Notes under the pieces: model-generated | What the model saw: the letters and a program-made list of their open reading frames with translations, nothing else | What the model was told of the DNA's origin: nothing | The model's database searches: none | In this document: in pieces, positions 1-1,344 of the stretch | Numbering within the stretch: position 1 is the stretch's first letter | How the letters are laid out: every line of letters starts with the position of its first letter | Program-made: the position numbers and the translations under genes | IMG/VR virus record: IMGVR_UViG_2663762948_000003 | Reading direction: 5' to 3' (one strand) | Length of the DNA stretch: 1,344 nucleotides | Origin: a virus | Lineage: Duplodnaviria; Heunggongvirae; Uroviricota; Caudoviricetes

Positions 1-480
1 TTCTTCCTCCGTTGCAATTTCCAGATCTGCAGCATCCTGAAGCGGCGCAATATGCTCACTGGCTACCTGCATCAGGCTGTTTTTTGTTTCTTCTGCCTCC
101 CGGATCCGGAACAGTTTTTCTGCTTCCGTATCCTTCACCCAGGCTGTGCCGTTCCACTTCTGATATTCCCCTCCCGGCGACAACCAGGTAACATTTTCCG
201 GTAACGGACCGAGTTCAGAAATAAATAACGCGTCGCCGGAAGCCACGTCATAAACCGTTTTACCCCGATGGTCTTCAACGAGATGCCACGATGCCTCATC
301 ACTGTTGAAAACAGCCACGAAGTCTGCCGGAATATCTGGTGGTGCAATATCGGTACTGTTTGCTGGCAGACCTGTATGAGGCGGAATATATGCGTCACCT
401 TCACCAATAAATTCATTAGTTCCGGCCAGCAGATTATAAATTTTTATGGTCCGTGCTTGTTCACTCATTCTGAATGCCAT
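1..480 (-). CDS. tfa: Tail fibre assembly protein Tfa, N-terminal 160 codons; the 3' end lies beyond position 1
   Basis: My own translation of the minus strand from the ATG at 480..478 gives [160 protein letters not shown], open for all 160 codons to the window edge. This is near-identical to lambda Tfa as I recall it. It is absent from the supplied ORF track, apparently because it has no stop inside the window. A GAGG Shine-Dalgarno sits 8 nt upstream, and the start overlaps the upstream stop (TAATG). Confidence 0.88.
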
Positions 481-493
481 TATGCAAGCCTCA
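478..493 (-). promoter_or_regulatory. tfa ribosome-binding site and stop/start overlap (TAATG)
   Basis: The minus strand reads GTGAGGCTTGCATAATGGCA. GAGG is at 492..489 with an 8-nt spacer; the TAA stop of the upstream ORF (482..480) shares one base with the tfa ATG (480..478). Confidence 0.55.
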
Positions 494-1133
494 CAATATA
501 GTTAAATGCGATGTTTTTGACGGTGTTTTCCGCGTTACCCGCAGCGTTAACGGTGATGGTGTGTCCATGTGAGCCAATCGCAACGGAGTGCGTATGAGCA
601 CCAATATCCACCTCAACCGGATCGAAGGCTTCACCGGTCATGGTGTATTTGCCCTTAAGCACGGCAGAAACTGCCTGCATCTCTTCGACCTGAGCAATGG
701 CCAGCTCTTCGTCACGCATGTTCTGCATGATGATGCGACGGCGGCGGTAAACAGTTGTTGATTGAGTCTCTTTGGTCATTCGCCCTCCTGAGAGACGGGA
801 TTTACGTGCATCCAGTGCATCACGGATGACGGTGATCGCATCGGTGCTGTTAACAAGTTCATCAGCCAGTCCGGCATCAATGGCCTCCTGACCGCTGTAC
901 ACTGCAGCCTCGGTAGCCTTCCAGCGTTCGAATATCTTCACTCGATTAACACCAAGCGCTCGCTGATCAACCGCGCCACCTTCATCTGTGACACGCTGAA
1001 CATCGATGTTCGGGCGCTCTTTCAAAGCCCAGAATGCTTCAGTGATTAATATCGTCGCCTGCTCCTGTGTCATTCCTGGTCGACATATCCAGGCATCCAG
1101 AGCCTCACGAGCCTGTTCAGGAGTGATTTTCAT
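480..1133 (-). CDS. Mosaic ORF (217 aa): in-frame fusion of an unassigned N-terminus with fragments resembling protease C/scaffold Nu3, major capsid protein E and the side tail fibre tip; probably a deletion-scarred remnant, function unknown
   Basis: Intact ORF from ATG 1133..1131 to TAA 482..480 (track protein MKITPEQ...NYIVRLA). Residues 74-128 carry the S49-peptidase-like GLADELV motif followed by the Nu3-type start [10 protein letters not shown]. Residues 129-176 match a lambda E internal segment as recalled. Residues 177-217 carry HxH repeats and the ...[18 protein letters not shown] ending typical of lambda-type Stf. It is too short to hold a protease catalytic domain or a capsid fold. 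Confidence 0.6.
483..605 (-). other. Segment 4 of the mosaic ORF: side tail fibre (Stf) C-terminal tip-like domain
   Basis: [41 protein letters not shown] has HxH motifs and the characteristic C-terminal ending of lambda-type side tail fibres. It sits directly upstream of tfa, as stf does in lambda. Confidence 0.65.
606..749 (-). other. Segment 3 of the mosaic ORF: major capsid protein E internal fragment-like
   Basis: [48 protein letters not shown] matches an internal stretch of lambda gpE as recalled (...[54 protein letters not shown]...). Confidence 0.6.
750..914 (-). other. Segment 2 of the mosaic ORF: protease C C-terminal region / Nu3 N-terminus-like
   Basis: [55 protein letters not shown] corresponds to the end of the lambda C region that precedes and includes the internal Nu3 start. 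Recalled from memory; about one substitution (I for M) against my recollection. Confidence 0.65.
777..789 (-). promoter_or_regulatory. Shine-Dalgarno (AGGAGG) plus in-frame ATG: retained Nu3-type internal translation start inside the mosaic ORF
   Basis: The minus strand reads CAGGAGGGCGAATGACCAAAGAG. AGGAGG is at 789..784 and ATG at 779..777 (Met119 of the 217-aa ORF). In lambda, Nu3 is made from an internal in-frame start within C. Confidence 0.5.
915..1133 (-). other. Segment 1 of the mosaic ORF: unassigned 73-aa N-terminal region
   Basis: [73 protein letters not shown]. It does not match the lambda C N-terminus or any lambda protein I can recall. It is preceded by a G-rich stretch (GGGCGGGGCGG) that may act as a weak ribosome-binding site. 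Confidence 0.4.
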
Positions 1134-1344
1134 TGTTCAACCGCCCCGCCCGCTTCGTCTTACGATATTCATCATAAACTTTGGGATCATACTGAAGCTC
1201 CCCGCCAGATGCCTCCTGTAGACGCATCGCGCGACCTTCAGGAACCAGTATCCCCCAAGCAGCAACACTTGCCAGCCTCACTCCTGCGGCATTGGCAAGC
1301 TTTGTTTTGCTGCCAAAAAAAGTAATTGCGTCAACTTTAAGCAT
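1117..1344 (-). CDS. 3' portion of a hypothetical protein, probably phage-derived; the 5' end may lie beyond the window
   Basis: Track ORF ...[19 protein letters not shown] with stop TGA at 1119..1117. It overlaps the downstream start (1133) by 17 nt in a different frame, a typical coupled phage gene arrangement. The ATG at 1344..1342 is only the first Met inside the window; the frame may stay open upstream. I do not recognise it as the lambda B, A, W or Nu1 C-terminus. Confidence 0.4.

Follow-up and report, generated by a model that had tools for sequence, protein, structure and literature searches.

Among described systems, the nearest to the locus analysed here is the right-hand end of Qin, a decayed prophage of Escherichia coli K-12 that is laid out as dicC and, further along, stfQ (b1547), tfaQ (b1546), pinQ (b1545), ydfK and ynfT, adjoining ydfJ. 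Roughly 12 kb of lysis, cold-shock and toxin-antitoxin genes lie between nohA and dicC in that element, and its stfQ is itself a deletion fusion of gene A codons 1-3 with the last 317 residues of the lambda-type side tail fibre Stf, giving 320 fibre codons that include a whole gp37-like distal module of collar, two-stranded HxH stem and receptor tip. StfQ residues 90-320 align with T4 gp37 (PDB 2XGF) at E=2.9e-83, and the receptor tip of gp37 comprises residues 932-959 (domain limits from PMC6957217). Phage lambda (Ur-lambda) has the same stf-tfa gene order, with a 1-nt stop/start overlap between orf-314 and orf-194 at 21973, and its Tfa, a member of the Caudo_TAP family, helps assemble the full 774-aa fibre and stays with the fibre in the virion (PMC7291167). 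Proteins of the TFA family combine a variable N-terminal fibre-binding domain with a conserved C-terminal trimerisation domain (PMC9608196), and the C-terminal helical region of TfaQ (127-191) matches that of phage Mu U (PDB 5YVQ), whose N-terminal domain is unrelated.

The window, a stretch of 1,344 nucleotides filed as viral in IMG/VR, is likely the right-hand end of a decaying Qin-type lambdoid cryptic prophage of E. coli, in which decay is advanced but recent and what survives is undecayed rather than kept. Positions 1-606 are 97.5-98.4% identical in nucleotides to annotated Qin-locus tfaQ/stf ends, up to 99.8% identical to sequences in E. coli genomes and up to 98.7% identical to phages (96-98% for most of the matches listed), and the homology to phage fibre genes ends at 606-612; resemblance on this scale is no coincidence. 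Positions 910-1344 are 99.8% identical to E. coli dicC-ydaT loci. Qin immunity genes (dicC and ydaT/ydfX) and a tfaQ-type fibre end thus share one strand, which places the window in the Qin type (Table 1). Shared with K-12 Qin are tfa (96% amino-acid identity over 160 aa, 97.5% nucleotide identity), the last 41 Stf residues, the TAATG overlap and dicC with ydaT/ydfX; the differences are that only 43 fibre codons remain here and that tfa lies 0.65 kb from dicC. Relative to lambda, nucleotide identity is about 96% over tfa and the fibre end, but the 43 terminal fibre residues are fused here to unrelated fragments. The earlier note, made from the letters alone, had called tfa the only apparently undamaged lambda-like gene; dicC (1344..1117, 75 aa) is also complete, is 100% identical to annotated E. 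coli DicC, and overlaps the ydaT start by 17 nt. A promoter and terminator scan of the whole window returned no candidates on the minus strand and stayed at background level. Qin-type prophages are already known to carry this tfaQ/stf remnant, which is annotated in thousands of genomes, and the discovery value of this ordinary remnant type is small.

Table 1. Features of the 1,344-nt window
Feature	Position	Strand	Evidence
tfa (tfaQ-type tail fibre assembly gene), codons 1-160	1..480	-	open frame; Pfam PF02413; PHROG 105
Rfam RF02111 'IS009' match	1..137	-	cmscan 152 bits vs gathering 117, E=2.9e-37
TAATG stop/start overlap, fibre ORF stop (482..480) with tfa ATG (480..478)	478..482	-	read from sequence
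217-codon mosaic ORF YdaT'::C'::E'::'Stf	480..1133	-	ORF list; all four pieces in one frame
Last 43 codons of lambda-type side tail fibre (Stf), two HxH motifs and C-terminus	483..611	-	tblastn; gp37 alignment
Dead major capsid gene E (gpE) fragment, approx. codons 106-151/153, joined in frame at either end	612..749	-	tblastn; Pfam Phage_cap_E positions 93-152
Dead head protease/scaffold gene C fragment (gpC, S49 peptidase), codons 264-318	750..914	-	tblastn; Pfam Peptidase_S49
ydaT-family N-terminal 75 codons with native start, opening the mosaic ORF	909..1133	-	tblastn to YdaT aa 1-75
dicC, Cro-like regulator of Qin immunity region, complete, 75 aa	1117..1344	-	Pfam P22_Cro 45.9 bits; 100% identity to annotated E. 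coli DicC

The fibre end had been described as a fragment of its own, whereas it is the 3' end of an uninterrupted 217-codon ORF (1133..480) that sits behind the intact dicC and has been shortened by in-frame deletion at three junctions, which lie roughly at 909-918 (microhomology TAT), 749/750 (TT) and 606-611 (GGCTA/CCGA, an imperfect 9-mer). By tblastn the fibre end corresponds to residues 278-320 of K-12 StfQ and 1090-1132 of the full-length 1132-aa Stf, at 97.7% identity over 43 positions; the two codons nearest the junction read VD in place of VG and are capsid-derived, and nucleotide homology to Stf reaches 606. Upstream of these 43 codons the ORF consists of capsid, protease and YdaT sequence, and the tail-attachment and shaft regions of the fibre are missing. 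The 43 residues match gp37 984-1026 nearly residue for residue, so that of the distal module only the equivalents of those positions are present, and the outgoing stem strand and the receptor tip are absent. Judged by this alignment, the retained piece is the returning stem strand and the end of the collar, not the receptor-binding tip, and the earlier suggestion that it contacts the receptor is not supported.

Two of the first observations on this DNA hold as they were made: tfa is undamaged over its first 160 codons (open frame 480..1, with 81.6 bits to Pfam Caudo_TAP, PF02413, against a cut-off of 22.1), and the C-terminal end of a fibre lies upstream of it, coupled through TAATG. The tfa product also matches PHROG 105 'tail fiber assembly' (E=3.5e-80), and the gene directly follows and overlaps the fibre ORF in the order typical of Caudo_TAP genes. 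The frame runs without a stop to the edge at position 1, with about 31 codons lying outside, as judged from relatives whose tfa has 191-194 codons; the window therefore ends at residue 160 with the conserved Mu U-like domain only partly visible. Qin-locus tfa alleles are modular, the match in some genomes being limited to the last ~37 codons, in agreement with the layout of variable N-terminal and conserved C-terminal domains. The RF02111 match, which covers model positions 1-137 of 199 before the window edge cuts it, is contained in the coding region of tfa and has the orientation of the gene; a published list of excluded RNAs on which ribosome footprints are to be expected includes IS009, and same-strand RNAs inside genes form one of the categories in that list (PMC5331693).

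Comparison with other remnants places the mosaic in a series. Strain 21EVA carries the tip::capsid junction together with tfaQ (191 aa) and pinQ, and a metagenome contig (L015), at 99.5% identity, carries both the tip::capsid and the capsid::S49 junctions and then continues into intact portal, W and nohA genes. The ydaT::S49 junction was seen only in the window. Junction sharing is thus cumulative, one in 21EVA, two in L015 and three here, and its most parsimonious reading is an order of deletion that runs in the same direction, which suggests that decay went step by step and has gone furthest in the window. The exact arrangement is absent from 5,426 complete E. coli genomes: megablast against them found the tip::capsid junction in 2 and the other two junctions in none. 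Pattern searches found no genome match for the capsid::S49 junction, which occurred in one metagenome contig, and no ydaT::S49 junction in GTDB representative genomes or JGI metagenomes. An exact look-up of the 217-aa product returned no record, and among 5.8 billion proteins the best match covered 66% of it, none being full-length. This absence of the ydaT::S49 junction and of the product from every collection searched could mean that the mosaic is, wholly or partly, a chimera of assembly or amplification and not a real chromosomal arrangement, and a tfa module boundary, a spot at which repetitive sequence would interrupt an assembly, does lie about 15 nt from the left edge of the window. Such an artefact is very improbable, given that two of the three junctions were found independently in 21EVA and L015 and that the third is of the same kind. 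Junctions across the remnants show 2-6 nt or an imperfect 9 nt of microhomology, and 2-9 nt is typical of genuine deletions, whereas repeat-driven misassembly needs repeats of k-mer length.

The state of preservation of the window argues for neutral decay, one of the readings the earlier note had offered for a remnant caught midway, and the position of the window as the most reduced of three states with cumulative junctions agrees with it. The capsid fragment has 0 differences from phage lambda E in 138 nt, the S49 fragment 1 private nonsynonymous change (M->I vs lambda) in 165 nt, and tfa likewise 1 private nonsynonymous change (G53D, position 323) in 480 nt. Capsid and protease fragments that are certainly dead are therefore preserved as well as tfa, and the intactness of tfa provides no evidence of selection. 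An estimate of dN/dS had been proposed as a check; values are indeed low (pN/pS 0.15-0.29, tfa pooled 0.15), but they are uninformative as a test of selection, since the alleles form a recombining mosaic common to phages and the dead capsid piece likewise differs between the window and 21EVA by 2 synonymous and 0 nonsynonymous changes. The low pN/pS of tfa is therefore a legacy of its history in phages and no sign of selection at its present site. From these observations we infer that the survival of tfa and the fibre end has been neutral and without function.

The reading frames of the junctions could point in another direction. All three junctions of the window are in frame (chance P=1/27); in a small sample of loci chosen by similarity, and with marginal significance, the distinct junctions of related remnants are in frame in 9 of 15 cases against 5 expected (9 of 14, P=0.017, before the out-of-frame nohA/W junction of L015 was added), as are 6 of the 9 distinct X::Stf junctions that immediately precede tfa (P=0.042). 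This excess, which is suggestive only, might be a sign of maintained translation into tfa, as would be the case if Tfa were domesticated, with the host gaining from TfaQ and in-frame deletions persisting where a working start reads through to TAATG. Five of the in-frame fusions, K-12 stfQ among them, retain the partner gene's own start codon, and tfa is intact (191-194 aa) in 12 of 12 related loci at no fewer than five chromosomal sites. Nevertheless, domestication seems unlikely. Out-of-frame variants with an intact tfa occur in strains 2452, P377 and Z1323CEC0018, tfa is truncated or lost in Rac-type loci (H149, H151) and survives near appY as a fragment with an internal stop, the dead fragments are conserved just as well, and the only private tfa change in the window replaces a glycine that is invariant across the other alleles compared. 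In an evenly spaced sample, tfa is present in all 21 Qin right ends that have pinQ, which indicates that the whole right end is kept and not tfa alone. We know of no host function for Tfa. It is also improbable that independent deletions in lambdoid remnants are filtered so that an upstream frame with a functional start codon enters TAATG and E. coli keeps TfaQ translated for some host function; were this true, the window would exemplify the filter at its extreme, with three in-frame junctions that put tfa 0.65 kb downstream of the dicC promoter region.

The absence of the receptor tip bears on two further proposals for why the pair might have been retained. One is that it serves as a host-range reservoir and owes its retention to its capacity to recombine into lambdoid phages entering the cell. 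Exchange of this kind has been measured: a marker inserted into K-12 tfaQ passes to lambda by way of 657 bp of 96% identical stf-tfa homology in Qin, at about 2e-6 and mainly by Red-beta (PMC3945230), and the modularity of Qin-locus Tfa alleles fits it as well. As a consequence of the pair's presence such recombination is real and already published, and the reservoir idea draws weak support from it, but a substrate for recombination needs homology alone and no selection, a gain for the phage does not explain why the host should retain the pair, and the sequence is 96-98.7% identical to what phages already have. With only the equivalents of gp37 984-1026 present there is no receptor-binding sequence and hence no new host range to donate, and we regard retention as a reservoir as improbable. 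The other proposal, that the fibre end and Tfa block a surface receptor against superinfecting phages, draws its sole support from reported host-surface binding by TFA proteins, as given in the title of a paper (North and Davidson 2021) that PMC9608196 cites. Such exclusion is extremely unlikely, for the fibre piece lacks both the receptor tip and the outgoing stem strand needed for an iron-coordinated trimer, and the first residues of the mosaic product and of Tfa, read by eye, show no typical N-terminal export signal. In addition, the operon sits behind dicC, a region that in K-12 Qin we take to be repressed by DicA.

Beyond the window the relatives offer a view of the flank, where the earlier note had hoped to find an invertase or alternative fibre cassettes. 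The invertase is there, with pinQ lying 98 bp beyond tfaQ in relatives, and the alternative cassette is not. In seven relatives (L001, L002, L004, L005, L009, L011 and L012) pinQ-ydfK-ynfT follow tfaQ with ydfJ as neighbour, while in JX2 (L006) ydfJ adjoins too but a hypothetical gene replaces pinQ-ydfK-ynfT. A serine invertase next to tfa recalls the Din-family invertase cassettes Mu G/Gin, P1 C/Cin and e14 P/PinE; in the relatives, however, pinQ converges on tfaQ and there is a single cassette, and none of this lies inside the window. We rejected an invertible cassette, since the relatives have no second, opposed fibre/tfa cassette and neither K-12 nor a locus that has a full-length stf yielded a convincing pair of inverted crossover sites. 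A Pin-mediated origin of the reused breakpoints was likewise set aside, as about 6 of 12 positions per half-site agreed, by eye, with the gix/hix consensus.

A scenario of neutral decay is the most likely explanation of these features. Through successive illegitimate deletions at short microhomologies the element would have lost its tail genes, the greater part of the fibre gene and most head genes, and a final deletion would have taken everything between ydaT and the protease gene. What was left would have been dicC, the mosaic ORF of 217 codons and tfa, arranged in a row with one orientation and linked in translation. The 43-residue fibre end would have no function of its own, and a Tfa without a fibre would have no substrate. 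Both would have lain at the extreme end of the element, adjoining pinQ-ydfK-ynfT as in relatives, and the time elapsed would have been too short for point mutations to break them. Recombination with near-identical copies in other lambdoid prophages probably refreshes them as well, and many copies are on hand, since 3,860 of 5,426 complete E. coli genomes carry the fibre-end sequence, at 6,591 places. The survival of tfa and the fibre end may thus be explained by end position, short time and this probable refreshment.

In summary, the window provides a clean example of prophage erosion in which three microhomology deletions can be ordered with the help of one genome and one metagenome contig. 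It also illustrates that the intactness of a gene within a remnant is uninformative where the adjoining dead fragments are equally unmutated. The excess of in-frame junctions, if upheld on a large scale, would bear on which genes of cryptic prophages are domesticated.

The window genuinely holds a further-decayed allele of the known stfQ-tfaQ remnant of Qin, a cryptic lambdoid prophage of E. coli, but as a finding this is unremarkable. Identity to the tfaQ/stf ends of the Qin locus is 97.5-98.4% over positions 1-606, and identity to dicC-ydaT is 99.8% over positions 910-1344. The tfa reading frame matches Pfam Caudo_TAP (81.6 bits, cut-off 22.1) and PHROG 105 (E=3.5e-80), its product is 96% identical to K-12 TfaQ, and by these criteria it is clearly a predicted tail fibre assembly gene. 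The last base of the fibre-end TAA (482..480) doubles as the first base of the tfa ATG, the same one-base overlap as between lambda orf-314 and orf-194. Given the Pfam, PHROG, TfaQ and Stf matches, the earlier note was correct, far beyond chance, in seeing tfa preceded by an overlapping fibre end. It erred in taking tfa for the sole undamaged gene, as dicC is also intact, and in treating the fibre end as a loose fragment when it is the final part of one 217-codon ORF. A strong Rfam RF02111 'IS009' match (152 bits, window 1-137, minus strand), truncated at the window edge, falls wholly inside the tfa frame, and this RNA family may be just a model of conserved tfa coding sequence.

Features of the window, which carries every gene on the minus strand
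Feature	Position	Strand	Description
dicC	1344..1117	-	intact
Mosaic ORF (YdaT'::C'::E'::'Stf)	1133..480	-	217 codons
Mosaic piece 1			YdaT residues 1-75; native start, overlaps dicC
Mosaic piece 2			head protease gpC (S49) residues 264-318
Mosaic piece 3			major capsid gpE residues 106 to about 153
Mosaic piece 4			Stf, last 43 residues
Junctions of mosaic ORF (window 480-1133)	~606-611, 749/750, 909-918
Fibre end	611..483	-	directly upstream of tfa; aligns to the 43 C-terminal residues of lambda-type side tail fibres
tfa	ATG at 480..478	-	open reading frame, open 160 codons up to window edge

The four pieces of the mosaic ORF share one reading frame (tblastn against lambda and E. coli reference proteins, with PHROG and Pfam in agreement), and dicC, the mosaic ORF and tfa form a string in which every gene overlaps its successor. 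Because the first two fibre-end codons (VD, against native VG) belong to the capsid-derived part, fibre-gene nucleotide homology reaches only 606; among phages and prophages this homology has its limit at 606-612. At each junction, comparison with native sequence revealed a short shared stretch, namely TAT, TT and an imperfect 9-mer (GGCTA/CCGA); such microhomology is typical of illegitimate deletion.

The distribution of these junctions suggests how the mosaic arose. The tip::capsid junction occurs in 2 of 5,426 complete E. coli genomes, one of them 21EVA, where capsid residues 1-151 are fused to the 43-codon tip, tfaQ is complete (191 aa) and pinQ follows 98 bp past it. The capsid::protease junction occurs in none of the 5,426 and is present in a metagenome contig (L015; ERZ773111 NODE-5750, 1-3426) that matches window 518-918 at 99.5%, holds both junctions and runs on through the N-terminal rest of the protease, the still intact portal gene, W(17-68) and nohA(1-172). 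This contig begins within the fibre tip, which fits an assembly break at a repeat. The ydaT::protease junction had no match in the complete E. coli genomes, GTDB representatives or JGI metagenomes, and the mosaic protein has no record in a collection of 5.8 billion proteins. Judged by its sequence, L015 would represent the stage immediately preceding the final deletion seen in the window. On the simplest reading, a single lineage underwent three deletions one after another, and the window shows its latest state.

The curated gene order in K-12 MG1655 runs ydfJ / ynfT ydfK pinQ tfaQ stfQ nohA ... dicC dicA ... intQ, and across related strains the right end is constant while the amount of phage left is very different. 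One relative still has the complete tail cluster, its stf encoding 1132 aa, HL15 has the protease C-terminus fused to the tip, EC590 and JX2 have terminase fused to Stf, and strain 2452 keeps almost only tfaQ and a 57-codon tip. Similar tfa and truncated-stf ends lie at further prophage sites near bioA, appY/ompT, yejM and ssrA. K-12 stfQ (b1547; start at L005 5800-5900), annotated 'side tail fiber protein', carries the GTG start and codons 1-3 (V-N-I) of terminase gene A joined in frame to the 317 C-terminal residues of Stf, and is itself a deletion fusion on the translation start of A. In JX2 (L006 4480-8223), the supposedly intact gene annotated 'terminase gpA endonuclease subunit' is a 1,247-codon ORF made of a terminase-like N-terminus and Stf ~356-1132 in frame; it ends in the same TAATG before tfaQ, and a hypothetical gene stands in place of pinQ/ydfK. 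The Ec42 prophage near yejM/tRNA-Pro (L013 3413-8123) carries an stf N-terminal fragment, then a gene for an SGNH/GDSL hydrolase, two small genes, an orphan 61-codon Stf end and intact tfa; the fibre module seems to have been replaced and the old tip/tfa pair left in place.

All three window junctions are in frame (chance 1/27), as are 9 of 15 distinct junctions in related remnants against 5 expected (9/14, P=0.017, before the out-of-frame nohA/W junction of L015 was added), and in five in-frame fusions the start codon is still that of the partner gene. Domestication, in the form of selection for translation into tfa, is an improbable source of this excess. Several breakpoints are reused with different partners (L002 ~6606-6612, by tblastn only; L007 ~5436-5441; L001 ~8606-8612; L005 ~5848; and the nohA 3' ends of L012 and L015, all related loci). 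Nearly identical breakpoints join capsid codon 151 to Stf -43 or -318, Stf -317/-320 to capsid or gene A, Stf -41/-43 to capsid or protease, and nohA codon 171/172 to W, portal or J, with microhomology that is just short or imperfect (GGTAT, GATA..CGGG). Nested deletions at short imperfect repeats, deletion alleles spreading between prophages, or small-sample noise could also underlie the excess.

The earlier note took the fibre piece for the receptor-interacting part, which the structural alignment contradicts. K-12 StfQ 90-320 aligns to the crystallized T4 gp37 construct (2XGF; E=2.9e-83), and the window's 43 residues are equivalent to gp37 984-1026. The gp37 collar comprises residues 811-881 and 1010-1026, the stem 882-931 and 960-1009, and the receptor-binding tip 932-959 (PMC6957217), so the remnant corresponds to the returning stem strand, with two HxH motifs, and the collar end. 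Unlike gp37, it has neither the receptor tip nor the partner strand without which the iron-coordinated trimer cannot form, and as aligned it cannot determine receptor binding or host range.

Across 14 alleles, tfa has a pooled pN/pS of 0.15 and the tip only synonymous differences. This low value is no argument for selection, because the non-functional capsid fragment is equally conserved, with two synonymous and no nonsynonymous differences from 21EVA. That fragment (window 612-749) is identical to lambda gene E over 138 nt, which suggests that it arose very recently or has repeatedly been converted from lambda-like head genes. The window's two private substitutions are both nonsynonymous: M->I at ~824, the one such change in the 165 nt of dead protease fragment, and G53D at 323, the one in the 480 nt of tfa, at a glycine invariant across the other alleles compared. 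By these counts tfa is preserved no better than adjoining dead DNA. Variants form a mosaic common to loci and phages, and 3,860 genomes together carry 6,591 copies of the tip sequence, making gene conversion from live prophages plausible. Among genomes sampled at even spacing along the ranking, tfa accompanied pinQ in 21/21 Qin right ends (15 with the window's allele, six with another matching only the last ~37 codons), which argues for retention of the whole right end, not of tfa specifically; elsewhere, tfa copies are broken or lost. In ~10% of sampled genomes the K-12 match of the Qin-locus tfa is confined to those codons, whose boundary falls at about window position 16, placing the left edge ~15 nt from a tfa module boundary. 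Tfa proteins combine a variable N-terminal fibre-binding domain with a conserved C-terminal trimerisation domain (PMC9608196), and the match to Mu U is confined to TfaQ 127-191.

The proposal of a cassette for recombination holds as a property and is already published: a marker in K-12 tfaQ was acquired by lambda at about 2e-6 through 657 bp of 96% identical stf-tfa homology, mainly by Red-beta (De Paepe et al. 2014; PMC3945230). The remnant nevertheless offers phages nothing new, lacking receptor-binding sequence and being 96-98.7% identical to phage-borne copies. Of the invertase and alternative cassettes sought in relatives, pinQ lies beyond and convergent with tfaQ, but neither a second cassette nor a convincing inverted crossover-site pair was found. 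The Qin remnant and its recombination with lambda are already known, and neutral decay of that remnant is the best supported of the readings first put forward.
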